DNA from: a virus
Lineage: Duplodnaviria > Caudoviricetes
IMG/VR virus record: IMGVR_UViG_3300028591_000109
Location: 77,568 to 141,567 of that record
DNA: 64,000 nucleotides
Direction: 5' to 3' (one strand)
Part shown: positions 1 to 14,369 of the stretch, in pieces
Numbering within the stretch: the first letter of the stretch is position 1
Layout: each line of letters opens with the position of its first letter
The notes under the pieces: model-generated
Told to the model about the DNA's origin: nothing
What the model saw: the letters and a program-made list of their open reading frames with translations, nothing else
The model's database searches: none
Made by a program: the position numbers and the translations under genes

Positions 1-145
1 CACCGCGCTCCTGAATCTGCTGGAGCTCGGGAATGTGCTCGGCTAACTTCTCCCACAGGTCACAGACGTTTTCCTTGGCTGTCTGTGCCAGTTCGACGAG
101 CTCGCGCTTGTCTTGCTCGTCACGAAATTCTATTCCGAAAATCAT
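1..145 (-). CDS. Hypothetical protein, runs off the left edge (MIFGIEFRDEQDKRELVELAQ...)
   Basis: ATG in ACGACTATG context at 143-145; frame open to the window edge; last gene of the cassette. Confidence 0.6.
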   Translation of the reverse strand, partial: MIFGIEFRDEQDKRELVELAQTAKENVCDLWEKLAEHIPELQQIQERG

Positions 146-208
146 AGTCGTTGCTGTTTTAAAGGGTTATTACTATCCGAGCGGCAGAACCGCACGGCAC
201 ACAGATCT

Positions 209-766
209 CTACTTGCCCTTCGGCGAGGTGCTGGAAATCTTCTTGTTAAGATCCTGCATCATGGACATCATGGTGTTCATGGTGTTTACCACGTCGCCCA
301 TCTGTCCTTTCAGGTTGGCGATATCCTGCTTCTGCTCTTCCTCCTCTTTGTAGCGAGGATTGAGCGACATCAGGAACTCTTTGCCTTTCACCATAACCGC
401 ATCGTCGTAGGGCCGTTCCTCGATGCGCTTCCTGGCTTTCTGCATCATGGCATCCACAGCGGGCAGCATGCCTTCAGTCGTGCAACTGATAGTAGTCTGT
501 CCGTTGTTGTACGTGGCTGTCGAAGCTGTCGGAGAGAGATTGGAGAACGGAACGTCCTCATTACCCATGTGGACAACAATCTCCACAACGGGCTGCATCA
601 TGTTCGTGCCGGCATAGATACCGGGCGTTGCACCAGGTGTCTGTGTCATGTACATTGGCTTTGGTTCTGGTTTGTTAGCCACCGTTGCAACGGTAAGTTG
701 CGGTTCGGTACCACCTTCCTGAAGAATATAGATGGGAGAACCTTGCTTTAGACTTTGGAAATCCAT
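209..766 (-). CDS. Conserved Bacteroidales phage hypothetical protein (MDFQSLKQG...), C-terminal coiled coil
   Basis: 185 aa ORF, co-oriented in cassette. Confidence 0.75.
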   Translation of the reverse strand: MDFQSLKQGSPIYILQEGGTEPQLTVATVANKPEPKPMYMTQTPGATPGIYAGTNMMQPVVEIVVHMGNEDVPFSNLSPTASTATYNNGQTTISCTTEGMLPAVDAMMQKARKRIEERPYDDAVMVKGKEFLMSLNPRYKEEEEQKQDIANLKGQMGDVVNTMNTMMSMMQDLNKKISSTSPKGK

Positions 767-826
767 GTTGTTTTACTTTTTGTGTTGGTTAATAGCAGGC
801 TGCGGTGTTTCCGCAGCCTGCGGAGA

Positions 827-1171
827 TTAGACGACGGTGCGGCTCATCAGTTGGAGGATGCCATTACCAGCGTCGTTGAAAACAGCGAACACGCCGGTGC
901 CGCCTATCAGCTCAGCCACTGTGACGGGCGTGCCGTCGAAGAGCGTGAGCTGGCGTGTCTGACCGTTGCGGGTCAGCGTGACGGGCAGCGTGGTCGTAGT
1001 ACCGGCAGGAATGGCATCGGTGAGACGCACGGTGAAGTAACCTACGGGCGGCAGCGGACGGCGGTTAAAGCCAAGGGCAATATCTACAGCCGTTGTGCCA
1101 ACGGTTGTGTTGGTGGACTGCAGGTAAGGTATGCCGCTCTGGTTCGTCGGAATATTGAAATTACATCCCAT
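827..1171 (-). CDS. Conserved hypothetical beta-rich protein of the cassette
   Basis: 114 aa ORF. Confidence 0.75.
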   Translation of the reverse strand: MGCNFNIPTNQSGIPYLQSTNTTVGTTAVDIALGFNRRPLPPVGYFTVRLTDAIPAGTTTTLPVTLTRNGQTRQLTLFDGTPVTVAELIGGTGVFAVFNDAGNGILQLMSRTVV

Positions 1172-1187
1172 AGCTCACCTCCTTCCG

Positions 1188-2270
1188 TTAGAAACCGTAG
1201 TTGCCACCGTAGCCGCCAAACATACCGTTAGGATAGATACCGCCGCTGACGTAGGGCGTAGCGTTGACAGCCACCAGGTTCGGGTACTGCACGCTCACCG
1301 TGTTAGGCAGCTTGCACTTGATATCGTCCACTTCCTTGTTCAGTCCTGCGAGGGCTGCGTTGACAGGTCCGAGGCTCTGTCCGACCACGCTGGCGATGTA
1401 CTGGTTCTGGTTCAGTTGACTGATTTCACCCTTCAGGGCGGTGTTCTTGTCGCGCTCAGCCTCCAGTTTGTCCTGCAGCGTCTGGGTCTGCATCTCGGCG
1501 AGTTTGCCGAGGATGGCCTGCGTGTTGCGGTTTGCGCCGTCGGTGAGGGTGTAGGTCTGCTGGCAGGTGGCCAGCTCGTCCTTGCCTGCGTTCAGCGCCA
1601 TCTGAGTCTGAATGCCGGAGAGTCCGCGCTCCACGCCGTTGAAGCCCTGGTTCAGACCCATCTGCACGCCGTTGAAGCCAGTGTTCATGCCCTGCTGCAG
1701 CTGAGATGTCTGTTCGGCGATAGCGAACTTATTATCGCAGCAGCACTGACAGAGTTGCTGACTCAGGGCAGCGTTGCCGCTCTGTATAGCGTTGATGATC
1801 TGCAGCGGGGTCATGCCCTGCTGGGCAGCGATGCTTGACAGCGAACTCTGGATGAGCTGGATGCCGCTGTTGACGAGGTTGAAGTCCTGGCCAAGCATGG
1901 TGCTCAGTGTCTGGGTAGCCGTGCGTGCCTGTTCACCCTGCGAGGTGACGGCCTGCATGATGAGCTCACGCCCGTTGTCGTTGTTCAACTGGTTGGCAAG
2001 GAACCCTACGCCGTTCGCACCGCCCATGCCGCCGAAGCCGCCGTTGCCATTCCATCCGAACATGCTGGCGAGGATACCCATGGCGAACAGTTCGGTGATG
2101 TTGTTCATGTTCATGGCGTTCCAGCCGTAGCCGCCGCCACCGAACCCGAAGCCACCGAGGCCGCCACTCATGCCCGCGCCGAGCATGAAGGGTACGATAC
2201 CGTTGGCAAGCGCATTACCATTACCATTCCCGTTTGAGTCCGGAATGGAAAAAACTTTCATGTCACTCAT
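1188..2270 (-). CDS. Gly/Asn/Gln-rich protein with hydrophobic N-terminus, CQCCC motif and coiled coil
   Basis: Start reassigned to MSDMKVF at 2270, downstream of the promoter at 2343-2350. Confidence 0.75.
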   Translation of the reverse strand: MSDMKVFSIPDSNGNGNGNALANGIVPFMLGAGMSGGLGGFGFGGGGYGWNAMNMNNITELFAMGILASMFGWNGNGGFGGMGGANGVGFLANQLNNDNGRELIMQAVTSQGEQARTATQTLSTMLGQDFNLVNSGIQLIQSSLSSIAAQQGMTPLQIINAIQSGNAALSQQLCQCCCDNKFAIAEQTSQLQQGMNTGFNGVQMGLNQGFNGVERGLSGIQTQMALNAGKDELATCQQTYTLTDGANRNTQAILGKLAEMQTQTLQDKLEAERDKNTALKGEISQLNQNQYIASVVGQSLGPVNAALAGLNKEVDDIKCKLPNTVSVQYPNLVAVNATPYVSGGIYPNGMFGGYGGNYGF

Positions 2271-2342
2271 AATTGTAAAGTGTTTGTGTTGGTTGTGAAT
2301 AATGTGAATTAACTCGTGGGTTGGCAGAGCCGAACCCACGGG

Positions 2343-2350
2343 CAAAGTTA
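2343..2350 (-). promoter_or_regulatory. Bacteroidetes -7 promoter element TAACTTTG for the cassette
   Basis: Matches TAnnTTTG about 70 bp upstream of ATG 2270. Confidence 0.6.
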
Positions 2351-2426
2351 TTCACTAATCACTTGACTATGAAGCAAATGAAAGCATATCACCCGAAGCC
2401 TACGGTTCATCCGTGAAGTGGCGGTT

Positions 2427-2666
2427 TCAATGTCTTCTGTTTACTGACATTTCGAGGTGGTGAAGAATGTTATATACCTGTCTGTCGCTGATGTGATGAC
2501 GCTCAGCCAGCGTTAGGATTACTGCTTTACGAGTGACCATTGTCTCAGACAATTTCAGGTAATCGCGATACAAGTCGCAATACTTGTAATCTTCCAATCG
2601 AATGCCCGCTTCGTTCATTCGTTGAAGTAGCTCCCTGTTAAATTCTACTAAATCTATTATTCGCAT
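2427..2666 (-). CDS. Small HTH (Mor-like) regulator
   Basis: C-terminal LAERHHISDRQVYNIL helix-turn-helix pattern. Confidence 0.6.
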   Translation of the reverse strand: MRIIDLVEFNRELLQRMNEAGIRLEDYKYCDLYRDYLKLSETMVTRKAVILTLAERHHISDRQVYNILHHLEMSVNRRH

Positions 2667-2700
2667 GGTGCAAAAATGTTAATGTTTAAAATATTCTTAT

Positions 2701-2853
2701 TACCTTTGCACCCGCTTCACTTACATTCCAGAGAACTATAAATGTCTGCTGGTCGCGAAGAGGGCATATACTCCCTCCAGCCTCGGCTGGCAGACATTTC
2801 TGTGTTATGATGTAAGTGAAGCGACGGATTAACAGGCTGGTGGGAGTTTTTTT
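2701..2853 (+). ncRNA. Candidate structured small RNA with host-type promoter
   Basis: TACCTTTG at 2701; perfect 14-bp stem 2713-2726/2810-2823; inner stem; loop 2770-2783 complementary to 2834-2847; T-run follows. Confidence 0.5.
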
Positions 2854-2893
2854 ATTTCCTTTCCGTCCACCACGGAAAGGTCTATCGAGAGGG

Positions 2894-3475
2894 TTATGCT
2901 GCGGATGTAACAGCAAGACGTGTAAGCAGCGAGCCGCTGACGGTCACTGCGCAAATCATTTCCGCAAGGAGCACGCCCTTGCCGTCGTACCATCGGGAGG
3001 GATAGATGCGTCCGTTATGAGAGGGCAGCGCGTCGCAGCCATAGACTGCCGCGAACAGCAGCCACGCCAGCAGCCACCACGGGCTGATGAGCAGCACGCA
3101 GGCCTGCGAGAGGATGCCGCCGAGGATGCCGAAGACGTTGTGTGCGCGACGATTAACGTGGCTGTCGCTGATGGGCATTGCCCCGCACAGCATCAGGCAG
3201 GCAAGAGTAGCGAAGGCGAGGATGCGCCAGTCGTCAGGCATCGCCGAGCTGAGAGGTATGCACGTGAGCAGGCTAACGGCCCAAATCCACACGATCCACA
3301 GCCACTGCCAGCCTCTGGGCAGCTCATAGACCAGCGCGGAGATGCTGTCGGGCAGAGCTGCGTTCAGCCGTTCGGAGTAACTCTCTGAAACATCAGTGTC
3401 GCGCCACCGCCTCCAGATGGCAGTCCCCACGTAGAGGACTGCCAGGAGGATGGAAGCTAATACAAGATACGTCAT
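2894..3475 (-). CDS. Multi-pass membrane protein
   Basis: Several hydrophobic Trp/Leu-rich segments. Confidence 0.7.
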   Translation of the reverse strand: MTYLVLASILLAVLYVGTAIWRRWRDTDVSESYSERLNAALPDSISALVYELPRGWQWLWIVWIWAVSLLTCIPLSSAMPDDWRILAFATLACLMLCGAMPISDSHVNRRAHNVFGILGGILSQACVLLISPWWLLAWLLFAAVYGCDALPSHNGRIYPSRWYDGKGVLLAEMICAVTVSGSLLTRLAVTSAA

Positions 3476-3481
3476 AGGCGG

Positions 3482-4045
3482 TTACTCGGCTTGCTGGTTA
3501 TCGTTCTGACTCTGCGACGGGAACAGGGCCTCGTAGGGAGCCCAGTCGATGGCATCCTTCTCCCGCCAGCCTGCGGCCAGCGTCTGGTTGATGTGGGCGA
3601 CGGCCTTCACGTAGAAGTCCTGAGCGCCGGCCATCGTCTCGAAGGTGTGGTAGACGGGCGTGCCGTCCTCCCGCTCGCCCAGCTTGAAGGTGACTGGCAG
3701 CGTCGCGCCCCCGGTCTGCACGGCGAGGTCGTAGGCCGCCTTGAAGTTGAACTGGTTCTCGCTGGAGAGCCACACAGAGACGGACTCCTCTGCGCCTTCG
3801 GGAGTCCATACGAAACCGGAGAGGATCTTCTCGTCGGTGCGGGCGTTGATGTCGGCAAGGATGGCGGCCTTCACGTCGGCAAACGAGATGGTGGCGTGCT
3901 GACGCTTGTAGAGGTAGACCTCATACCAGGAGGCAAGGCCGCCTGCCTGTTCAGGCTGCTGCAGTCCATAACATACGGTGACGCGCGAACCCTCGTCGCG
4001 CAGTGGAGCGTAGTCGCTCACGGGTCCTGTGGTCTTGTTCTTCAT
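3482..4045 (-). CDS. DUF4376-like phage tail-associated protein
   Basis: WLSSENQFNFKAAYDLAVQTGGATLPVTFKLG motif, typical of Bacteroidales phage proteins found after tail-fibre genes. Confidence 0.65.
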   Translation of the reverse strand: MKNKTTGPVSDYAPLRDEGSRVTVCYGLQQPEQAGGLASWYEVYLYKRQHATISFADVKAAILADINARTDEKILSGFVWTPEGAEESVSVWLSSENQFNFKAAYDLAVQTGGATLPVTFKLGEREDGTPVYHTFETMAGAQDFYVKAVAHINQTLAAGWREKDAIDWAPYEALFPSQSQNDNQQAE

Positions 4046-4132
4046 TGTGATAATTATTTAAATGGGTGAATAATGGTTTTATCGGGATGGCTGCGATGGT
4101 ATCGCAGCATACTGGACGGAGGGAGATTTCCG

Positions 4133-4771
4133 CTATGCGGCTCGCTGCATACGGGTCATGTCGGCGTCGAAGTAGCCGATGCGCAGGTACTCGGGACGGA
4201 AAAACAGCTCGCGGCGCAGGCGGTAGCTGGCCGTCTGGCGCAGGATGCCGAGGTAGGAGTTGACCGTGCGCACCACCTTGTCGGGACGGTTGAAGTCCAT
4301 CTCGCGCAGGTGGCGGCGTATGCGCTGCAGCGAGGTCAGGTTGCCGTGATCGTCGGGCATCTGGATGGGCACGTCAATGCGCCCGTCCTCCACGTCGCGC
4401 CAGTCGAGCACCAGTTCCTTGGGCAGGTACTTGTCGAACGACTTCTCCTGGAATCCCACGAAGATGTACTCGCCACCAATGTTCTTGGCGAATTTCTTCA
4501 CTGCCGTGGGCGGAACAATCTCCATGTCGGGGTGCAGGCGCTTCATCTGCGAGGTGATGACCACGGCCACCAGCCACGCGCTCCACTCGTTGGCGTGCCA
4601 GTAGTTTCCGTCGCGCAGCAGGTGAACCACGTTCCACTTCTCAGGTTCCTTCCTGTCGGCCTCGATGGTTTGGATTTCCTGGTTGGTGAATCCCTTCCGC
4701 TCGCCCTGCTGCTTGGGCAGCTGGACTTTGGCAGACGGTTGGTTCTGTTGTTGTGTCTGTGTTGTTGACAT
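4133..4771 (-). pseudogene. Chimeric DGR remnant: accessory (MutS-I-like/MSL-type) N-terminus fused in frame to the C-terminal ~65 aa of a DGR reverse transcriptase
   Basis: N-part VVHLLRDGNYWHANEWSAWL resembles Bacteroidales DGR accessory proteins; C-part VNSYLGILRQTASYRLRRELF resembles the DGR-RT thumb; no YxDD motif; junction near 4333-4345. Confidence 0.7.
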
Positions 4772-4798
4772 ATCTCTATTTGTCTATTATTTTTTCTG

Positions 4799-4892
4799 TT
4801 GGTTTCCTTCGTCCGCCCCACTGCTGCTGTGCCGCGCTGGGGCGCGGCGGTGCAGCAGTGAAGCGCACGAAGGAATGGTTCGGGCGGAAGTA
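4799..4892 (-). promoter_or_regulatory. GC-rich hairpin/cruciform downstream of variable repeat, copy B (DGR target-recognition element)
   Basis: Nested inverted repeats TTCCTTCGT/ACGAAGGAA, CACTGCTGC/GCAGCAGTG and CCGCGC/GCGCGG; identical copy at 6337-6430. Confidence 0.75.
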
Positions 4893-5075
4893 TTACTGGA
4901 CCGGCCGAACCGGGAAACCGCAGTACCGATCGTACGCGCCCTGCGGGCGGACACCATTGGGATAGAAGTACAGGCCCCGGGCGTGGCGAGCCGAATCGAA
5001 CGTCGACGACCAGAAGTAGCCACTGCCCGTGCGATTGACCCACGAACGGCCATAGCCGAGACCGGACGCCGGAAA
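4893..5075 (-). repeat. DGR variable repeat B
   Basis: Differs from 6431-6613 only at codon positions 1 and 2 of NNC/NNT codons. Confidence 0.85.
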
Positions 5076-5786
5076 GAAAAGAAGATTACCGTTGATCTTC
5101 GAGCGCAGATAGAGACCGTTGATGCCGTTCACCGTCACGCGCTTGTCGGCAGCCTTCTTGGCGATGCTGGTCTCTGCCGTCACCACGTTGCCGTCGGCGT
5201 CGATGTAGTCGATATTGGCGAACAGCTCCGCGAAGTCTTCATTGCTTGGCATGCGCCAGGGGGCACCGAGGCAGGCGCGGGCGGCGTCCATCGAGGGAGG
5301 TATATTTCCCGTGAGCGTATTACCCGGCGTGTCGCCGTACACCTGTCCGTCGTACCACGGCTCTGCGGAGTTCACGCTGCCCCAGTTGTAGTCAAAGGCT
5401 GATGTGCTGCTGGGATTGTGTCCGTCGGTGTTGCCCCACGAGAAGAATGAGCACTCGTACTTGAAGGGCGATACTGCGCCGTCCACCTCCTGGAATTTCG
5501 ACGCCGTGGCGAGGTCGATGGAGGCCTTGGCCCAGAGCACGCCGGAGGGCAGGCCCATGTCTACGAAGAGGTCGGTATCGACGTAGGGCTTCTGGTATTC
5601 CAGGATGTCGCTGAGTTTCTTGCCCGTCTTCAGGTCAATAACGGCATCCGTCGAGAGGGGCGTCTTGTTGGCGGGCGTACCGTCGTCGTTGAAGAGCATC
5701 ACCTGTTGAGTTTTGCCGGCGGTGGTGGCTGCCGTGAGGCCGCTCTGCACGGCCTTCAGGGCGTTAAGTTTGGTAATTGTTTCCAT
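4893..5786 (-). CDS. DGR target protein B with C-terminal CLec-type domain (probable receptor-binding protein)
   Basis: FVDMGLPSGVLWA, WRMPS, LFFPASG..YFWSST..GFPVRPVQ motifs; paralogue of 6431-7336. Confidence 0.85.
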   Translation of the reverse strand: METITKLNALKAVQSGLTAATTAGKTQQVMLFNDDGTPANKTPLSTDAVIDLKTGKKLSDILEYQKPYVDTDLFVDMGLPSGVLWAKASIDLATASKFQEVDGAVSPFKYECSFFSWGNTDGHNPSSTSAFDYNWGSVNSAEPWYDGQVYGDTPGNTLTGNIPPSMDAARACLGAPWRMPSNEDFAELFANIDYIDADGNVVTAETSIAKKAADKRVTVNGINGLYLRSKINGNLLFFPASGLGYGRSWVNRTGSGYFWSSTFDSARHARGLYFYPNGVRPQGAYDRYCGFPVRPVQ

Positions 5787-5866
5787 TGCTGTGTTGTATT
5801 GTTTCGTTGTTTACTGTTTCTTTTACAAAGAAGATTGCGGCGGTGCCGTCGACGGCATCCCGTCGG

Positions 5867-6316
5867 CTATGCGCTGACCACCACCGTGCGGATCATCAGT
5901 TCGGCCACGGCCTGCAGCAGCTGCTGGCGGGTGTACTGCTGCCCGTTGGCAGTGTATGTCTCGCCCTCTAATGCCGTTATCCGTGCGTTGAGTTGGCTGA
6001 CCCAGTACTCTATGCTTGCGTCGGTGAATATCTCCCACCCCTCATTGGGCGCCGGGTCGGTGACGACGAACGAGCGCTTACCGTTGACGATGTTCACCAC
6101 GAACTGGCCGTTCTGCACCGTCAGCGTGCAGGGCAGGTTCTGCGTAGCGGCGGTGGCGCGGTAGAGCACGCCGTTGATGCCTACAACGGCGTTATTCGGG
6201 AACGTCGATGCAGGCGTGAGCGTCGAGATGTCCACAGGCAGCAATGCCCCTGCCTCATAAGCCATCTGCAGCTGCCCGAGGTTGACGGCCTTTTCAAGAG
6301 TGTTATTGCTTGGCAT
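5867..6316 (-). CDS. Tail-associated protein, paralogue B (MPSNNTL...)
   Basis: N- and C-termini nearly identical to 7398-7844. Confidence 0.75.
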   Translation of the reverse strand: MPSNNTLEKAVNLGQLQMAYEAGALLPVDISTLTPASTFPNNAVVGINGVLYRATAATQNLPCTLTVQNGQFVVNIVNGKRSFVVTDPAPNEGWEIFTDASIEYWVSQLNARITALEGETYTANGQQYTRQQLLQAVAELMIRTVVVSA

Positions 6317-6336
6317 ATTCTTGTTTTATTTTTCTA

Positions 6337-6430
6337 TTGGTTTCCTTCGTCCGCCCCACTGCTGCTGTGCCGCGCTGGGGCGCGGCGGTGCAGCAGTGAA
6401 GCGCACGAAGGAATGGTTCGGGCGGAAGTA
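6337..6430 (-). promoter_or_regulatory. GC-rich hairpin/cruciform downstream of variable repeat, copy A
   Basis: Identical to 4799-4892. Confidence 0.75.
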
Positions 6431-6613
6431 TTACTGGACCGGCCGAACCGGGAAACCGTTGGACCGATTGATCGCGTACTGCGGGTTGACACCACCGGGA
6501 TAGAAGTTCAGGCTCCGGGCGAGGCGAGCCGAACTGAACGTCGACGACCAGAAGTAGCCATTGCCCGTGCGATTGGTCCACGAACGGCCATTGCCGAAAC
6601 CGGACGCCGGAAA
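6431..6613 (-). repeat. DGR variable repeat A
   Basis: Retains several AAC/AAT codons where copy B is substituted. Confidence 0.85.
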
Positions 6614-7336
6614 GAAAAGAAGATTACCGTTGATCTTCGAGCGCAGGTAGAGGCCGTTGATGCCGTTCACCGTCACGCGCTTGTCGGCAGCCGTCTTGGC
6701 GATGCTGGTCTCTGCCGTCACCACGTTGCCGTCGGCGTCGATGTAGTCGATATTGGCGAACAGCTCCGTGAAGTCCTCATTGCTCGGCATGCGCCAGGGC
6801 GCACCGAGGCAGGCGCGGGCGGCGTCCATCGAGGGCGGAATGTTGCCCGTGAGCGTATTACCCGGCGTGTCGCCGTACACCTGTCCGTCGTAGTAGGGCT
6901 CCTGCTCGTTCACGCCGCCCCAGTTGTAATCAAAAGCGGATGTACTGCTGGGATTGTGTCCGTCGGTGTTGCCCCAAGAGAAGAATGAGCACTCGTACTT
7001 GAAGGGCGATACTGCGCCGTCCACCTCCTGGAATTTCGACGTCGTGGTGAGGTCGATGGAGGCCTTGGCCCAGAGCACGCCGGAGGGCAGGCCCATGTCT
7101 ACGAAGAGGTCGCTGTCGACGTATGGCTTCTGGTATTCCAGGATGTCGCTGAGTTTCTTGCCCGTCTTCAGGTCGATGACGGCATCGGTCGAGAGGGGCG
7201 TCTTGCCGTTAGGTGCTCCGTCGGGTCCGAAGAGCATCTGTGTCTGTGTCTTCAACGCCGTGTCTTGCGCCGTGAGTCCGCTCTGCACGGTCTTCAGCGC
7301 TTGTTGAATGGTTACTGTTCCAACATTGTCTGCCAT
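6431..7336 (-). CDS. DGR target protein A with C-terminal CLec-type domain
   Basis: Same motifs as 4893-5786. Confidence 0.85.
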   Translation of the reverse strand: MADNVGTVTIQQALKTVQSGLTAQDTALKTQTQMLFGPDGAPNGKTPLSTDAVIDLKTGKKLSDILEYQKPYVDSDLFVDMGLPSGVLWAKASIDLTTTSKFQEVDGAVSPFKYECSFFSWGNTDGHNPSSTSAFDYNWGGVNEQEPYYDGQVYGDTPGNTLTGNIPPSMDAARACLGAPWRMPSNEDFTELFANIDYIDADGNVVTAETSIAKTAADKRVTVNGINGLYLRSKINGNLLFFPASGFGNGRSWTNRTGNGYFWSSTFSSARLARSLNFYPGGVNPQYAINRSNGFPVRPVQ

Positions 7337-7397
7337 AATTGTATTGCTTTTTTGTTTTCGTTATTACGTTATATCGTTATTTCATGAGCCACAATGG

Positions 7398-7844
7398 TCA
7401 CTGCGTGACAATGGTTTTATCCATCAGCTCGGCCACGGCCTGCAGTAACTGTCGGCGCGTATATTGTTTTCCGTTGGCGGTGTAGGTCTCGGTCTCCAGT
7501 GCCGAGATTCTTTGGTCGGCCAGCGAGTAGGCGTAGGCCATGCCCGCGTCCATCCACACCTCCCAGTCGGCGTTGACGGTCATGTCCTGCACGACGAAGG
7601 CCTGCTGTCCGTTCACCTCATGGGTGACGAACTTGCCGTCGCTCACCACCATCGTCAGCGGCATCGAGGCCGTGGCCCGCTTGGCGCGGTAGAGCACGCC
7701 GCCGATGCCGATGACGGCGTTCTTCGGGAACGTCGATGCAGGCGTGAGCGTCGAGATGTCTACGGGCAGCAATGCCCCCGCCTCATAAGCCATCTGCAGC
7801 TGCCCGAGGTTGACGGCCTTTTTAAGAGTGTTATTGCTTGGCAT
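7398..7844 (-). CDS. Tail-associated protein, paralogue A (MPSNNTL...)
   Basis: Paralogue of 5867-6316. Confidence 0.75.
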   Translation of the reverse strand: MPSNNTLKKAVNLGQLQMAYEAGALLPVDISTLTPASTFPKNAVIGIGGVLYRAKRATASMPLTMVVSDGKFVTHEVNGQQAFVVQDMTVNADWEVWMDAGMAYAYSLADQRISALETETYTANGKQYTRRQLLQAVAELMDKTIVTQ

Positions 7845-7916
7845 ATTCTTGTTTTGCTGTTAAGGGTGAAGAAAGGAGAGTCCGGACTTTCCGGGCTCTC
7901 CGTGAGCGGAGGAGGT

Positions 7917-8489
7917 TTACTCGCCTGCGGGCAGTCCGAGGGCGGTGCGCACCTCGGCGTCGGTGGCGAACTCGCCCACGATGTAGCCGGCCTCAGAGTG
8001 GTTGCCCCAGCCGTAGGCAGTGTCGGCGTTTGTCAGCGTGGTCTGCACGCCGCTCACCAGCTTGGCCTTGGTGATGGTGCCGTCGGTGGCGGTCACGGTC
8101 ACCTCGTGGGTCGTCGGGTCGATGTTCACGACGAACATGTCGCCCGTCTGCGAGCCGCTGGTGACGTACTCGATCAGGCCCGAAACGTCAACATACTGAT
8201 ACTCGGCAGTGTCGCCCGTGGGGGCTACGTTCACCTTCAGGAAGGTGCCGGGGGTGCCCTCGCCGTCAGCGGCCACGATGCCGATGATGTTGTTAACGTA
8301 GTCCTTCGGAATGTTGATGGTTCCGATGGTCACGCCACCCTTCTTGATGATGGTACTTGACAGGACACCCTCGCCCGGAGTACCGGCTTCGATGGTGATG
8401 TCCTTTGCTGCGCCTGCAGCGTCGATGGCCTGCTTGATGAGGGCCAGGTGCGCCATGTTAAGGGCACTGTTAGCATTGGTCTTTGCCAT
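7917..8489 (-). CDS. Phage structural/tail-associated protein
   Basis: 190 aa, Thr/Gly/Val-rich, GTINIPKD and YVDVSGLI motifs. Confidence 0.65.
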   Translation of the reverse strand: MAKTNANSALNMAHLALIKQAIDAAGAAKDITIEAGTPGEGVLSSTIIKKGGVTIGTINIPKDYVNNIIGIVAADGEGTPGTFLKVNVAPTGDTAEYQYVDVSGLIEYVTSGSQTGDMFVVNIDPTTHEVTVTATDGTITKAKLVSGVQTTLTNADTAYGWGNHSEAGYIVGEFATDAEVRTALGLPAGE

Positions 8490-8581
8490 GTTGTTAAACT
8501 GTTTGTGTTGGTTAAAAAATTAAGTGAACTTTATACTGTCTGGCTGCTGTGATACAGCAGCCTACTGAACAGCCTTTAGCG

Positions 8582-8899
8582 TCAGAGGCCGAGAACAGCC
8601 TTCACGTCGTCGTCGGTGGCGAAGTGGTTCTCCATTGCCTCGCGGGCCTCGGGCGAGAGGTCCTGCAGCCCGAGGGAGTCGTCTTCTACGGACTGGCTGT
8701 TGACTTTGCCGGTGGCTATCTTGCCGTCGGGCGTCACGATGTCAACGGTGACACCGCCGTCGGCGGGCATTTGAAGTGTGCGCTGGTGTACGCGGATGTG
8801 TCGGAGTACGTTCGTGCCGTCCTCCAGCGTCTCGTAATACAGGTGAAGCTGCTGTGCGATGACATGCTTCAGTTTCGTTAGGTCTGTTGTTGTTGCCAT
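8582..8899 (-). CDS. Hypothetical structural-operon protein
   Basis: 105 aa; first gene after the promoter motif at 8928-8961. Confidence 0.65.
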   Translation of the reverse strand: MATTTDLTKLKHVIAQQLHLYYETLEDGTNVLRHIRVHQRTLQMPADGGVTVDIVTPDGKIATGKVNSQSVEDDSLGLQDLSPEAREAMENHFATDDDVKAVLGL

Positions 8900-8927
8900 G
8901 ATGTCTGTCTTTTGTTATGTTGTCGGC

Positions 8928-8961
8928 AATATAATGAGAGGCACGACAAGGGTCAAGGGCA
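8928..8961 (-). promoter_or_regulatory. Putative phage late promoter TGCCCTTGA-N19-TATATT
   Basis: One of five copies with identical spacing. Confidence 0.65.
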
Positions 8962-8997
8962 GCGGGAAAAACCACGCAATCAGTGCAGCATGAAATC

Positions 8998-10152
8998 TCA
9001 TGAAGTGCCCAACTTAACCCAGTAATAATTGCGACCTTCCTTGTACGACATGAGTCTATAGCTGCCGCCGTTGTGTTCATAGTTCCCGTTAAGCGTAAGC
9101 TGGTCAGATATAGATATACTCTGTGCAAAGTTCCCCTTCATACATGACGCATTGTCACATTGTCGTACATATAGACTGCCGACATAAAGTTGAGAGGATG
9201 GCTGCGTATATCGGGTGTCGACGATTTCAACGATTTTGCCCTCGTAGTCCTGTGCCCTCGGCAAAGTCACGGTTATGTCATCGGTGTCAGTCCCGGTAGC
9301 CTTGATGACAACAATATCTGCTGCGCCTGTACACTTCACCATAGGTTCACCTATCCCAACATTTTCGCTGGATAGCTGGCGGGCTTCTTCTTCCGTATAG
9401 TAGCCTCCGTAGGTAAAGTTGCCTATCCAGGGTTCTTCGCTGTACTCATCCAAAAAGTCGTTGTTACAGAATCCGACGGTGTAACTGCCCGAGATAGCTA
9501 CCGAATGAAAGAAGTTCGTCGCCCTTACCACTCCTCTGAACTCACCGCTTGTTGCATGAATCTCGCCCTTGACATACGCATCGTTCTGGTACGTCTTGCC
9601 CGTCAGTCCATCCACTGCGAAGTTCGGAGCGAACTTATACCCCGACTGAGGATTCGTGCTGACCGTCGGGTCGGACGGGTCGAACCATGCGTAGGGAATT
9701 TTTCCGCCGTACTGCAGGCTGACATTGTCGGCGTTGACGGTAATTCTCGTGCCGCTGCTGTCGACGAGCGTGCCATACTGTGAAATCATCCAGTCGCCGT
9801 TGATGATGAACGAGCCGAAGTGGGCATAGGGGCCGAAGAAGGCCTGGGCGATGTAGTACTGCATGGTGGACTGCATGAGCGTCCACGGCTTCGTGCCCTG
9901 CCCGCTCACGGGGTTGTAATTCGTGGCGGGGTCTTCGTTTTTGCTTTCACCTGTCTCGACGCCCTTAGTGCCGAAGTCGAGCATATAGAAACTGTCGCCG
10001 CGCTTTACGAAGGGTGCCTGCGTCTCCTGCATGGTGTATGTTGCGTCAGACGCCCATTCGTCAGCATAGTAATACCAGCGACCTACGTGGCCTGCTTTGC
10101 CGTCCTTCACCGCAGAGATTGTAAACGATGCGCTACTGACTCTTTTCTCCAT
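8998..10152 (-). CDS. Putative tail protein
   Basis: 384 aa; aromatic/Gly-rich; lower-GC C-terminal part. Confidence 0.65.
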   Translation of the reverse strand: MEKRVSSASFTISAVKDGKAGHVGRWYYYADEWASDATYTMQETQAPFVKRGDSFYMLDFGTKGVETGESKNEDPATNYNPVSGQGTKPWTLMQSTMQYYIAQAFFGPYAHFGSFIINGDWMISQYGTLVDSSGTRITVNADNVSLQYGGKIPYAWFDPSDPTVSTNPQSGYKFAPNFAVDGLTGKTYQNDAYVKGEIHATSGEFRGVVRATNFFHSVAISGSYTVGFCNNDFLDEYSEEPWIGNFTYGGYYTEEEARQLSSENVGIGEPMVKCTGAADIVVIKATGTDTDDITVTLPRAQDYEGKIVEIVDTRYTQPSSQLYVGSLYVRQCDNASCMKGNFAQSISISDQLTLNGNYEHNGGSYRLMSYKEGRNYYWVKLGTS

Positions 10153-10166
10153 GATACACAGATGCC

Positions 10167-11360
10167 TTAGGGATTGAAAATATCGTAAGTTGCTGCCAGC
10201 ATCACACCGCTGCCGTCGTCGCCGAGCGTTGTCGTCAGGTAGTCGTAGCCAACAACTATCTGGCCGCCGGTCACGCTGCCATCCACACCAGGCACGCTGA
10301 CGCTTTTAGTCACCTCCCACAGCCCCTTGTAGTCGCCGCTCTGCTGTGGCTGCTGGCCGGCCATAGGCGAGCCGGTGGAGGTGATAACCTTGTTCTCGAA
10401 GTCGTAGAGACGGCAGTAGAAATGCGTGTAGCGTGTGTCTATCGTGGTTGTGCTGGTGGTCTTACCCATCCATCCGGTGATGGTGACGCTCTGACCCTCG
10501 CGCAGGAAGATACCGCCCTTGTTGAGTGACGAAGTGTTGTCGGTGATGACAGAGTTGACGTACATCTTCTCTTCATCGGTCTCGTCGTCAATCTCCCAGA
10601 AGGCCGATGCCTGCACGGCGGCGCTTGCGCTGGATGGGTTCTCGGTGTAGAAGTCGCAGCGCAGCACGATATTGTCGGTGATGGCCGTGTCGGCGATGCT
10701 GAACCTCGCCACCCGCTCGCCGCTAACTGTCTCGGATGCGATGGTAGAGCCAATCTGCTGACCCGTACCCTCGTCGTACCACTTGGTCCAGAACTGGTCG
10801 TTCACCTGCGACGTGCCCACGTAGAGCCTTCCCTCGACTCTGGCCGTCGGCTGCGCACTCGTCACCATCACGTCGCCGCTCAGCTGTCCATAGTACCCGC
10901 TGGCCGACAACTCGGAAACTCTGACGGGCAAGGCGATGCTGAACGGCAGCTGCGCACCGCTGAGCTCCACCGAACCCGTCATCTCGATGATGTCGTTGTC
11001 GGTATTGCTGATGGTGGCGATGTTCTTCATAATGTTGATGGCCGGGAAGGATACGGTGCCAACCGTCTTCGTGGTCTTCTGGAAATAGCCCTCGTAGCCG
11101 TCGGTCGCACAAAGGCCGTTGGAGTCGAACGTCAGCGCTACGCCGTTGTATTTCCAGGTGTATGTGGCTGCGGCTCTCTTTTTGCCGCCGAGGTCGGTCT
11201 CCACCCACACCTGCGGGTGGGTCGTCGCCCAGTTAGGCACGCACTCGCCCGACTGCTTGTTAATACGCTGCGCCAGCGTGGTGTTGCTGCGCATGATGGC
11301 GTTGACGGTCTGTCCGTCGTGGATAGCCGTTATCGTGAATCGGTTACTTACAAGTCCCAT
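10167..11360 (-). CDS. Putative tail/baseplate structural protein
   Basis: Beta-rich ORF; likely start MGLVSNRF. Confidence 0.65.
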   Translation of the reverse strand: MGLVSNRFTITAIHDGQTVNAIMRSNTTLAQRINKQSGECVPNWATTHPQVWVETDLGGKKRAAATYTWKYNGVALTFDSNGLCATDGYEGYFQKTTKTVGTVSFPAINIMKNIATISNTDNDIIEMTGSVELSGAQLPFSIALPVRVSELSASGYYGQLSGDVMVTSAQPTARVEGRLYVGTSQVNDQFWTKWYDEGTGQQIGSTIASETVSGERVARFSIADTAITDNIVLRCDFYTENPSSASAAVQASAFWEIDDETDEEKMYVNSVITDNTSSLNKGGIFLREGQSVTITGWMGKTTSTTTIDTRYTHFYCRLYDFENKVITSTGSPMAGQQPQQSGDYKGLWEVTKSVSVPGVDGSVTGGQIVVGYDYLTTTLGDDGSGVMLAATYDIFNP

Positions 11361-11373
11361 ATCTCGTTCCTCC

Positions 11374-11625
11374 TTATTTCTTGTCATTACCTGCCTCGCC
11401 GTACTGGTAGCCGTTCTCAGCTATCAGCCGCTCGGCCTCCTGCTCACTGATCAGCTCGACGTCGAGCCCGCTGACGTACTCCTCGGGTTTCATCTGCATG
11501 CGCACACCGCGCAGCGCCTTCTCGCTGAGGATGAACCGCCCGTCCTTTGTCCTGTAACTGGTGTCTATCGCGCCGGCTCTGCGGGCCACGTCGGCGCTGG
11601 CCAGGAATGTTCCTTCTGCTCTCAT
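11374..11625 (-). CDS. Hypothetical protein
   Basis: 83 aa, fills the operon gap. Confidence 0.6.
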   Translation of the reverse strand: MRAEGTFLASADVARRAGAIDTSYRTKDGRFILSEKALRGVRMQMKPEEYVSGLDVELISEQEAERLIAENGYQYGEAGNDKK

Positions 11626-11652
11626 AGTCTATGTCGTTTTTTAATTGTTGTG

Positions 11653-12990
11653 TCACCATCTTGAAACCACGTAACGCCCATCGCTCGTTACGTATTTTCC
11701 CTCGCCGTCAACCACGAGCTTGTAGCAGCCCAGCAGCCAGATGTCAGGGTACACCTCCACGTTCTCGTAGCCCGTGCGGTAGAGGTCGGCATTGCTGATG
11801 CTTACCTCGCGTCCCCAGCCTACGACCGTCACCTCTGCCGAGTTCATGCCGTGACGCTTCCACTCCAGCCGGACATATTCGTCCACCACGTCGCCGCCGA
11901 CATCTAAGCCGTCGGCCTGCACGATGGCGGCAAAGTCTTTCGTTCCGGCCAGCGTCTTTCCCTCGCGAACGACGGTGCCGCCCTTGCTGTAGGGCAGCGC
12001 GTCGATATTGGGCCATTGCCACACGGCGGCTATATGGTCGCGTGCGGGGGTGTTGGGTGCCGTGGGCTTGGTGTAATACTGCTTGCCGGTGTTGACCGTC
12101 GTGTCGGCAGTGAGCACATACGCTCCGTCCGCCTGCTCATAGTAGCCCTTGGCGTGCGGATTGCCCGTAGGGCTGTAGACGGCCTCGTAGTAGCCGATGG
12201 CGACGGCGATGTCCAGCTGGTCGGCGAAGTCCATGTCGACGACGATGGTATCTGTGCCCTGCCCCTTGCCCGCCAGCTGGTTAGCATCACGGTAGAACAG
12301 GCACTCCAGCGTCTCGCCAATCAGCGTGTCGCCGGCATACCAGAAGAACACCACGCCAGTTGTCGCGTCCTCTTCGCCCAGTGCTGCCTTCGCTGACAGG
12401 CGGAACATACTGCCGTACTGCAGGGCGCCGCCGGCCAGCGGCGTGTCGCGCTTCTGCCAGATGGGGTTGAAGGTAAGCGTGCTCGGAGCCTGTATCTTTA
12501 CGCTGTAGAACGCCTCCGGCTTGTTCTCCGCAGTCAGCAGCACAAGCTCCTCTTCGGTATAAGCCTGCTTGCGCAGGTTGTCGGGGCAGGTCACGCGGCA
12601 GGCTATCGTCACCGGCGCGTCGTAGTTCACGTTCTTGCGCACCACCAGCCTGCCTGTCAGGTTCCCCTCTGCGTCGCACTCCTTGTAATAGTCGTCGCTC
12701 GTGGTCACCGATGTTATTTCGGTGTATTCACCATTGTTCACCAGATACCACTTCTGTTCGTAGCCCGACGTTACCGTCTCGCCGGTATCGGGGTCGGTGG
12801 CCTCGAAGTGAGGACGGAGAAACAGCGGGTGCAAGCGCCGGTTGGGAATCCACAGATCGTGGGGCACGTCCTGCGCCTGTGTCAGCGGACCTCCGTTCTC
12901 GCCCTCCTGAATGATGGAGAGCGTCGTGCTGAGCGGAGTCCTTGTCGTGGCGAACACCACGGGTACTGCTGTGTTGACAATTTTCTTCAT
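11653..12990 (-). CDS. Putative tail structural protein
   Basis: 445 aa; overlaps the upstream stop (ATGA); YYEQ..YVLTADTTVNTGKQYY module. Confidence 0.65.
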   Translation of the reverse strand: MKKIVNTAVPVVFATTRTPLSTTLSIIQEGENGGPLTQAQDVPHDLWIPNRRLHPLFLRPHFEATDPDTGETVTSGYEQKWYLVNNGEYTEITSVTTSDDYYKECDAEGNLTGRLVVRKNVNYDAPVTIACRVTCPDNLRKQAYTEEELVLLTAENKPEAFYSVKIQAPSTLTFNPIWQKRDTPLAGGALQYGSMFRLSAKAALGEEDATTGVVFFWYAGDTLIGETLECLFYRDANQLAGKGQGTDTIVVDMDFADQLDIAVAIGYYEAVYSPTGNPHAKGYYEQADGAYVLTADTTVNTGKQYYTKPTAPNTPARDHIAAVWQWPNIDALPYSKGGTVVREGKTLAGTKDFAAIVQADGLDVGGDVVDEYVRLEWKRHGMNSAEVTVVGWGREVSISNADLYRTGYENVEVYPDIWLLGCYKLVVDGEGKYVTSDGRYVVSRW

Positions 12991-14369
12991 ACTATTCTTA
13001 TCGTGTTAATTATTTCTGCTTCTTCGCCGTCGATGTCGGTAAACCTTGCGACACACTTGAACGACACCTTGCCGCTGCCTGTTTCCCACCCTTCCGGCAG
13101 GTCGGCATCTTTGACGTTGATGGTGCGCGTCACGCTCTTCAGCGGCGACGTCGGGTCGTCGGGGACGGTACGGGCTGTATTCTTCCACGTCTCGTCGAGA
13201 GCACTGTTTCGGCTCTCGCGTGTCCACTGCCATTCCGTCACCATGCTGCTGATGTCCTCCTGCGAGAAGAGCAGATAGGGGACAACCGTCTCGTCGATGT
13301 AGCCAGGCCGCACACTGATACCGCTCACTGGCAAAGGAGGGTCATCGTCAGAATAGAAGCCCAGCGAAATCGTTCCGCCGCTGACGTACCTCCATTCGTC
13401 AGAGCCGAACCACGGTTCCTGAGTGGTGCCGTCCGCTACGCATTCCCATAAGGCTCCCTTGTTCCACGCCCGGCTCGTCTCCAGCTCGTTCTCTTCCTCC
13501 CATCCCTTGCTCACGGTGGTCAGCTTCTCGTACAAATCGGCGTCGGTCAGTGACGAGTTATCGCTGTCGAGCCGCTTGGCAATGAAACGGTGGCGCGTCA
13601 GGCTCTCGCGGTGGTAGGGCTCGGCTATGGGCTCGCCGTTGGTGAAGGTCAGAGGCTCCGTGCCCTCCCAGCCGAGTGCAGCAGCCACGGCGGCGGGCAG
13701 TGTGCCGTCGGGAGTGCGCGTCCCAGTGGGGCCTCGGTAGATGACGTGCGGTGTCTGTGCCCACGAGCCACGGTCGGTGATGACCGTGCGCACGGGGTTG
13801 TCGGGCAGGTCGTCGGGGTTCAGCCGCCACCGGTTGTTGTATTCCTCTGTACCCAGTATGCCGGTGTCGAGGTCTACGGTGCGCTGGTTGTTCTCGTCGG
13901 GTGCAGACACCGTGCCCATCTTTATCCACCAGTAGTCGGGATGGTCTACTACCTTAGGGAATCCGCGTTCATCATACTGCCCGGCAAGACCATCCTGCAT
14001 GACATAGGAATACTTGTCGAACCATTGCCCCGCCAGCCCGTAAGGGTTGTCCGGGCCATACTGAGACTGCGCCGCAAAAACGAGGTAGGCGCTGCCATCG
14101 GTGACGTAAACCTCGCTTTTCTGAAGCCTGGCATAAATGGTGTAAGGACCATTGCCGCAGTTCAGCCTTCGGTTGCGTCCGGTCAGCGTCCATTCGCGGA
14201 AAGAGTTGGTGTTTGGATTAATACCGAGCCGTTCGACGCCGGGAGCAAAGACCTTGATCTTTGTGCCACGCGACACATAGACTGCAAGGTCGTTGGCCGT
14301 GCCGTTGCAGTTTGGCACGATGCTGATGGCCGACGGGGCTATGTAGTAGACAGGGGATGTACGAGCCAT
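12987..14369 (-). CDS. Putative tail structural protein
   Basis: 460 aa; first gene after the promoter motif. Confidence 0.65.
   Translation of the reverse strand: MARTSPVYYIAPSAISIVPNCNGTANDLAVYVSRGTKIKVFAPGVERLGINPNTNSFREWTLTGRNRRLNCGNGPYTIYARLQKSEVYVTDGSAYLVFAAQSQYGPDNPYGLAGQWFDKYSYVMQDGLAGQYDERGFPKVVDHPDYWWIKMGTVSAPDENNQRTVDLDTGILGTEEYNNRWRLNPDDLPDNPVRTVITDRGSWAQTPHVIYRGPTGTRTPDGTLPAAVAAALGWEGTEPLTFTNGEPIAEPYHRESLTRHRFIAKRLDSDNSSLTDADLYEKLTTVSKGWEEENELETSRAWNKGALWECVADGTTQEPWFGSDEWRYVSGGTISLGFYSDDDPPLPVSGISVRPGYIDETVVPYLLFSQEDISSMVTEWQWTRESRNSALDETWKNTARTVPDDPTSPLKSVTRTINVKDADLPEGWETGSGKVSFKCVARFTDIDGEEAEIINTIRIV

Follow-up and report, generated by a model that had tools for sequence, protein, structure and literature searches.

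The window analysed here forms the final 64 kb of an IMG/VR virus record that is 141,567 nt long and has a completeness rating of 100%, and its positions 1-13,000 carry densely packed phage genes on the minus strand. Among these lie two DGR target genes, each with a partner gene, followed by the ORF in question and by a DUF4376 gene (Table 1). The Fib_succ_major/Lcl_C Pfam matches of both targets are weak and below the cut-off, and we infer from their context that they are receptor-binding proteins. The DUF4376 gene is found downstream of the RT in all relatives (synteny in L004, L005, L007 and L120) and marks the end of the cassette. The two-gene target module occurs in tandem in the window (4800-6327 and 6329-7850) and singly in L002, L006 and L007. 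Copy 1 is nearest to L006 (92%) and copy 2 to L007 (91%); since the copies resemble different strains most closely, unequal recombination between two strains is suggested, and not recent self-duplication. Elsewhere in the same genome, Aragorn run on G000:C1 predicted tRNA-Met, tRNA-Gln(CTG) and a tmRNA-like gene (tag AKVVDMTPRAQMLAAA) at 5872-5944, 15240-15311 and 16461-16768. A dispersed 30-nt motif of the type TTCTTCACTCTTCACTCTTCATTC, which may be a promoter or regulatory repeat, is present in G001:C1 at 22107, 86576, 113458, 130162 and 20989, at G002:C1:124602 and at G000:C1 ~2537-2572.

Table 1. Features of the DGR locus, in window coordinates.
Feature	Position	Strand	Remarks
DUF4376 protein, 187 aa	3482..4045	(-)	Pfam 2e-9, phrog_19239 3e-40
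Fusion ORF P0001, 212 aa	4133-4771	(-)	Stop TAG at 4133-4135 is the native RT stop
RT-derived part of fusion ORF	4136..4332	(-)	RT residues 332-398 of 398, thumb NSYLGI...SYRLRR, without catalytic motifs
Deletion junction	4333..4335	(-)	Microhomology CCT or C depending on parent type
Accessory-derived part of fusion ORF	4336..4771	(-)	Residues 1-146 of a 226-aa protein, whole N-terminal alpha/beta domain
Hairpin after VR1	4804..4875	(-)	Interrupted stem, 30 paired bases, 4-nt loop CCCA, 23 nt after stop
DGR target gene 1, 297 aa	4893..5786	(-)	C-terminal Fib_succ_major-like (C-type-lectin-clan) domain; Pfam match weak, below cut-off
VR1	about 4892-5082		Within target 1 C-terminus; matches relatives' TRs at 82-86%
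Partner gene of target 1, 149 aa	5867..6316	(-)	Part of duplicated two-gene module
Hairpin after VR2	6342..6413	(-)	Sequence identical to hairpin after VR1
DGR target gene 2, 301 aa	6431..7336	(-)	VR2 at about 6430-6620
Partner gene of target 2, 148 aa	7398..7844	(-)	Part of duplicated two-gene module

When compared with the TRs of L001, L002 and L003, VR1 has 19-21 of 36-37 adenines changed along with 5-8 of about 125 other bases, and VR2 has 12-13 adenines and 5-6 other bases changed; for VR1 the counts reach 21 of 36 A and 8 of 126 non-A positions. The two VRs differ from each other at 21 of 162 positions, all of them positions where a relative's TR has an A. These substitutions show a history of A-mutagenesis in both VRs: the targets were diversified earlier. 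Both end in ...GGTTCGGCCGGTCCAG, as do the TRs of relatives, and about 95 nt past the two target stops are identical between the copies (alignment A1). The hairpin in this region is strong (dG -37.6 kcal/mol, z -9.2; none of 200 shuffles reached this stability) and is followed by no T-run, which fits a DGR target-recognition hairpin rather than a terminator. The cis hairpins reported as intact in the first-pass annotation are therefore indeed so after each target.

The ORF between target 1 and the DUF4376 gene is a chimera of a DGR accessory N-terminus and an RT C-terminus, as was confirmed by comparing its halves separately, each of which matches a different neighbouring gene of intact DGRs. 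The first 146 residues of P0001 are identical at 140 positions (96%) to the N-terminus of P0002, a 226-aa DGR accessory from a cluster of 98 sequences, and this match breaks off at ...DDHG(E/N)LT. There the RT match takes over: the last 66-67 residues of the 398-aa DGR RT (332-398) are 91-98% identical to residues 147-212 of P0001. The tail (residues 146-212) shares 61 of 67 residues with the RT fragment P0040 and 44 of 67 with the 344-aa RT P0046, and 66 of its residues align with P0039 at 98% identity. With E-values of 1e-109 and 4e-43 for the two halves, chance matching is excluded. The RT motifs YVDD and GNLTSQ are not in the fusion (alignment A4), neither half contains a stop or a frameshift, and the ORF terminates in ...MQRAA followed by TAG. 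A search of 5.8 billion protein clusters drew two disjoint sets of matches, namely 37 proteins, mostly of 208-250 aa, spanning just the first 53-73% of P0001, and PF00078-bearing proteins spanning just its last 30-35%. No full-length homologue of the 212-aa protein was found among the 5.8 billion cluster representatives, either in proteins of similar length or in longer ones; its own cluster has one member, and neither Pfam nor PHROGs assigned a family to it. The first-pass annotation had placed the change of character near ...PDDHGNLT, had described the fusion as open and ending in AA, and had taken its last ~65 aa for a DGR RT thumb without YxDD; the comparisons uphold each of these points. 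It had also named two observations that would speak against a fusion, a single family of 212-aa proteins and a C-terminal part unlike RTs; no such family was found and the C-terminal part is clearly RT.

Intact relatives share the gene order target, accessory, TR, RT and DUF4376 gene. In L002 (ENA, 4.4 kb), a target of 301 aa precedes an accessory of 226 aa, a TR at 2907-3069, an RT of 398 codons and the first part of the DUF4376 gene. For L006 and L007, the underlying IMG/VR genomes (134 kb for the latter) display the same order with an uninterrupted 398-aa RT, the 226-aa accessory, the TR and the 398-aa RT are likewise syntenic in L014 and L015, and distant phages of ~130-140 kb (31-54% accessory identity) carry accessory, TR and RT, then DUF4376. 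Since relatives down to about 31% accessory identity all possess accessory, TR and RT, the deleted state in the window is derived.

The breakpoint could be located by blastn, which aligned window 5762-4335 with L002 1024-2447 and window 4335-3986 with L002 4107-4456. On the accessory side, window positions 4335/4333 stand opposite 6437/6439 of L006, and on the RT side they stand opposite its position 8057; L007 behaves likewise. These two-block alignments therefore place the junction at 4333-4335. The window lacks 1,620 nt relative to L006 and L007 and 1,660 nt relative to L002, the longer gap being due to a 40-nt insertion in the TR region of L002. The join reads GGCAACCTGA-CCT-CGCTGCAGCGC in the window, where L006 has ...GAGCTGA-CCT-ATGAGCGC... 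in the accessory and ...GTCGGCAG-CCT-CGCTGCGG... in the RT. The microhomology amounts to CCT (3 nt) with an L006/L007-type parent and to C (1 nt) with an L002-type parent, both values being approximate, like the parental breakpoint sequence itself, because the closest relatives found are only about 92-94% identical at the DNA level. Sharing of 1-3 nt at a join is typical of illegitimate recombination. No structural hot spot was detected at the RT breakpoint, where a 136-nt region is no more stably folded than its shuffled versions (z +1.5) and contains just one 5-bp GCAGC/GCTGC mini-hairpin. The accessory has lost residues 147-226, comprising a helix (147-160), a disordered linker and the conserved C-terminal helical hairpin (alignment A3), so that no intact accessory gene is left and 146 of 226 residues are retained. 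The intergenic region with the TR is gone as well, together with RT residues 1-331, which include motifs 1-7 with GNLTSQ and YVDD. That one deletion took the accessory C-terminus, the TR and the RT core, as had been proposed from the window, is in agreement with L002, L006, L007, L014 and L015, all of which carry these parts in synteny, and the microhomology sought at the breakpoint is present.

Could the junction be an assembly or library artefact, absent from phage DNA? It is apparently confined to one sample, and VR/TR repeats are known to trouble assemblers. Nevertheless, the join falls within unique sequence, the two sides having no more than 3 nt in common, and de Bruijn assemblers cannot invent such a join. 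The identical ORF with the same neighbours is found in the IMG/VR record, in a 135,167-nt ENA contig (ERZ27256846) and in a 1,327-nt Logan contig of SRR8436538. These three assemblies were produced by different pipelines and probably derive from one sample. In run X1 (sheep gut), the likely source, the Logan contigs hold 100% of 76 sampled 31-mers from 3935-4735, and the phage is present there at about 50x; the X1 contigs displayed over the window leave 4161-4874 uncovered, which speaks neither for nor against the junction. This support is at the contig and k-mer level, and at that level the concern about misassembly voiced in the initial reading is answered; we consider an artefact hardly credible. 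In ruminant-gut runs other than X1 no contig bridges the junction: a contig of X2 leaves the window sequence at 4333 into ...ERLQAAYQK of an intact accessory, and contigs of X8 leave it at 4335 into ...RPWHITPSA of an intact RT. The deletion is therefore present in DNA, apparently in one sample, and many sheep and bovine gut runs contain relatives with an intact cassette.

Nothing elsewhere in the genome replaces what was lost. PF00078 has no match anywhere in the 141,567-nt record. When the L007 RT was compared with the whole genome by tblastn, nothing but residues 332-398, at the fusion, was recovered; the L007 TR and the entire deleted segment, used as blastn queries, matched only VR1, VR2 and a distant 31-nt scrap. 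A functional DGR would have an RT with the SQ motif and YxDD, which the relatives possess and this genome lacks, and a TR paired with the VR, which is also missing; both targets do have the C-terminal VR, the 3' end shared with TRs and the downstream hairpin. With no other RT and no TR in a complete genome, the DGR is off in cis, as the first-pass annotation had maintained. The scrap is a separate curiosity. It lies outside the window at G000:C1:2480-2510 (L111:681-711), in an intergenic position, measures 31-33 nt and is identical to the relatives' TR at 29 of 33 positions. It keeps unmutated AAC/AAT codons, unlike VR1 or VR2, and is flanked by the inverted repeats GCCGACAGGCAA/TTGCCTGTCGGC. 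In G001 and G002 it matches solely their own TR, and Rfam reported nothing on the scrap region.

A loss in cis would not necessarily freeze the targets if co-infecting intact sisters provided accessory, RT and TR-RNA in trans and so diversified VR1 and VR2 by way of the homology and hairpins that remain. Retrohoming in Bordetella phage BPP-1 is supported by TR and RT given in trans. Here the cis elements following both VRs are intact and identical, the relatives' TRs have the VR 3' end in common (alignment A2), and intact-cassette relatives co-occur in ruminant guts, including many sheep and bovine runs. X1 also contains a minor third VR-like contig overlapping VR1 (depth 2.7 vs about 50), which may equally belong to another strain. 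VR1 and VR2 are each represented in X1 by a single dominant contig at about 50x, although contigs hide rare variants. Weighing these data, we regard a real deletion with targets still diversified in trans as unlikely, and favour VRs that are frozen.

The accessory family to which the N-terminal half belongs (alignment A3) combines a conserved N-terminal alpha/beta domain, WNVxHLLRDGNYWHANEWSxWL...FVGxQEKSFDKYxPKE, with a C-terminal helical part, the domain limits being taken from the predicted model m02600794092d. Its first ~145 aa had been described as a MutS-I-like DGR accessory. The assignment to a DGR accessory stands, given the identity to P0002, and the MutS label fares less well. Foldseek matched Taq MutS with a probability of 0.47 and an rmsd of 4.0 over 89 columns, and VIA-align superposed MSH2 15-151 with Z 3.3 and rmsd 6.3 over 88 aligned residues, which does not surpass the PAS/GAF folds with their Z of 3.8, the highest value reached by any fold match of the N-domain model. 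Fold searches with the full model (Foldseek, VIA) were discarded as they were swamped by helical-hairpin matches to residues 179-226. Among the language-model (atlas) neighbours at a score of 0.92 are Bacteroidota clusters with PF01624 (MutS_I) in 17% of their members. For 27 accessory homologues, Pfam gave nothing relevant at E up to 10, neither MutS_I nor Avd; a profile of the accessory found no MutS among PDB sequences and the accessory had no match in 50,697 GenBank phage records. A resemblance to MutS domain I (PF01624) is thus only weakly supported. As for Avd, no further ORF of at least 90 aa lies between target and RT in L006 and L007, save frames overlapping the TR or the accessory, and the flanking ORFs of the window have no Avd-type Pfam match.

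The deletion in the window is accompanied by other lesions in close relatives. In L120 (Logan SRR28204448, a 5,663-nt contig), the 391-aa protein P0048 (L120:489-1664) has RT residues 165-398 immediately after accessory residues 1-158. L120 963|964 corresponds to L007 6475|7560, so this is a separate in-frame deletion of 1,084 nt that removed the TR and shows no visible microhomology. In L013 (JGI 3300041548, a 904-nt contig), P0039 (L013:52-825) consists of a uvrB fragment in frame with RT 332-398, the RT match starting within 1 nt of the window's RT breakpoint. A Prevotella uvrB reads CTCGCCTCG at this join, which gives about 6 nt of microhomology (GCCTCG), the best uvrB relatives for L013 being at most 68% identical in protein; L013 is either a contig chimera or a real junction. 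A third route of RT knockout is seen at L002:3836-3838 and at the same codon in L003, where an in-frame TAG occupies the invariant Q of the RT GNLTSQ motif, a residue that is retained in L006, L007, P0045 and P0046. The most likely reading of this TAG is a nonsense allele that circulates in two samples. TAG-to-Q recoding (code 15) was considered for the window genome and rejected: genes are packed tightly under table 11, TAG ends 24 of 150 crude gene calls as well as the RT itself, and aragorn found no suppressor tRNA. Nine close lineages can thus be sorted into intact forms, at least to the contig end (L001, L006, L007, L014 and L015, the RT of L001 being cut at residue 330 by the end of its contig), a nonsense form (L002/L003), deletions (the present genome, G000, and L120) and a rearrangement (L013), and three or four of the nine are RT-null. 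The RT-tail DNA, scanned for as an exact pattern, had no match in metagenome_contigs or viral_contigs.

Further variants were noticed in more distant relatives. A +1 frame change in RT motif 1 (CAG TTT T CCG GAC or TTT CCC G GAC) is present in L004 (~9739-9745), L005 (~11238-11244), L010/L027, L011, L012 and L017, and in L021 and L022 the RT frame shifts about 15 codons earlier. Each part of these RTs remains an open frame and has a dN/dS of 0.02-0.37, with dS reaching about 1.4, and such purifying selection makes the change a candidate programmed frameshift rather than decay. In L008, L016 and L026 (IMGVR_UViG_3300026549_000045), the tblastn alignment of the accessory crosses two stops, or one in the case of L029, while the RT is intact; this could be another decayed or recoded accessory.

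We hold it highly probable that the locus is a phage DGR remnant left by one illegitimate deletion of ~1.62 kb, with frozen VRs and a non-functional fusion. The ancestor would have possessed a module made of the 148-aa gene, the target with its C-terminal VR and the hairpin, followed by the 226-aa accessory, a TR of ~190 nt, the 398-aa RT and DUF4376. A single deletion of about 1.62 kb, at the level of microhomology, would then have joined accessory codon 146 to RT codon 332 and removed the last 80 residues of the accessory, the TR and RT 1-331 with all finger and palm motifs. The join being in frame, translation that begins at the accessory start would continue as far as the native RT stop, which lies immediately upstream of DUF4376. 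The phage would no longer diversify its two targets by itself, leaving their VRs fixed at two different sequences, and the fusion protein would be a non-functional by-product whose in-frame state may protect downstream genes against polar effects. As the deletion is confined to one lineage and both halves are undecayed, it is presumed to be recent.

Against a random and functionless event, it may be objected that the junctions of L120 and L013 are also in frame, one of them at the same RT position. The fusion could have been kept for a function, as a dominant-negative or regulatory protein made of accessory N-domain and RT thumb, or its frame could have been kept for expression of the downstream tail module, the loss of the DGR being selected or driven by mechanism. 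P0048 of L120 is a second, independent in-frame accessory-RT fusion, the uvrB|RT 332-398 junction agrees in RT position within 1 nt, the whole predicted N-domain is retained in P0001 and both of its halves are free of stops and frameshifts. Yet each fusion occurs in one lineage only, as the single-member cluster of P0001 illustrates, L120 keeps a different portion of the RT so that no common 'functional' architecture is conserved, and the 904-nt contig of L013 may be a chimera. The in-frame prior is moreover 1/3 per event, and a protein-based search detects in-frame fusions only, a bias in view of which we make no claim of selection for frame. Retention for function accordingly strikes us as very unlikely. 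We are only slightly more inclined to the idea, itself doubtful, that DGR loss in the clade is recurrent and non-random, the TR-spanning deletions that fuse accessory N-domain and RT C-terminus in frame (146|332 in G000, 158|165 in L120), and with them the uvrB|332 junction of L013, arising from a break-prone site or from selection for an off-switch. If this were true, DGR activity or a nuclease would create a break-prone site or region around TR/RT, or alternatively selection would favour a DGR that is off together with an accessory-thumb fusion, e.g. one that is dominant-negative towards the DGRs of co-infecting relatives. The reading we retain is the single illegitimate deletion.

The element can be compared with three known systems. 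It resembles that of BPP-1 (mtd-avd-TR-brt) in the C-terminal VR within a C-type-lectin-clan domain, the GC-rich 3' end common to VR and TR, the 4-nt-loop hairpin after the VR and, as seen in L002, L006 and L007, the target-accessory-TR-RT order with the TR just upstream of the RT. It differs in having two tandem targets and neither TR nor RT core, which leaves it dead in cis, in an accessory of 226 aa without an Avd match, and in a much longer hairpin (30 paired bases) starting 23 nt past the stop. MSL (MutS-like) accessory genes are known in DGRs, as architecture D of Wu et al. 2018 (PMC5758913) and in the Bfr/Bth/Bun DGRs of Bacteroides (bioRxiv 10.1101/2024.11.15.621889). The present family shares with them a small non-Avd accessory beside TR-RT and an association with Bacteroidota, MutS domain I being only hinted at (no Pfam MutS_I match, Z at most 3.3). 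MSL-containing DGRs were reported to carry avd too (PMC5758913), whereas no Avd-like gene was seen in this cassette. The DGR of Quimbyvirus, in which overlapping frames encode the RT (Benler et al. 2021, PMC8008677), is likewise that of a Bacteroidota phage with an interrupted RT ORF, for which the conserved +1 change in RT motif 1 of the distant relatives offers a parallel. In that case the RT is apparently functional and recoded, whereas the RT of the window is physically deleted and that of its closest relatives is one 398-aa ORF.

The window thus contains a real, recent and derived DGR remnant, an instance of ordinary decay of a known element type, documented to the base. DGRs are usually catalogued intact and, to our knowledge, naturally inactivated cassettes with base-exact breakpoints and intact sisters have rarely been described. 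RT-centred DGR finders will miss such genomes despite their two DGR-shaped receptor genes. The deletions, the nonsense allele and the intact forms of this clade, in ruminant-gut phages that are about 85-95% identical, constitute a natural series that bears on how often phages give up targeted hypermutation, on frozen VRs as a mark of adaptation to a stable host receptor and on the trans-diversification of orphan targets.
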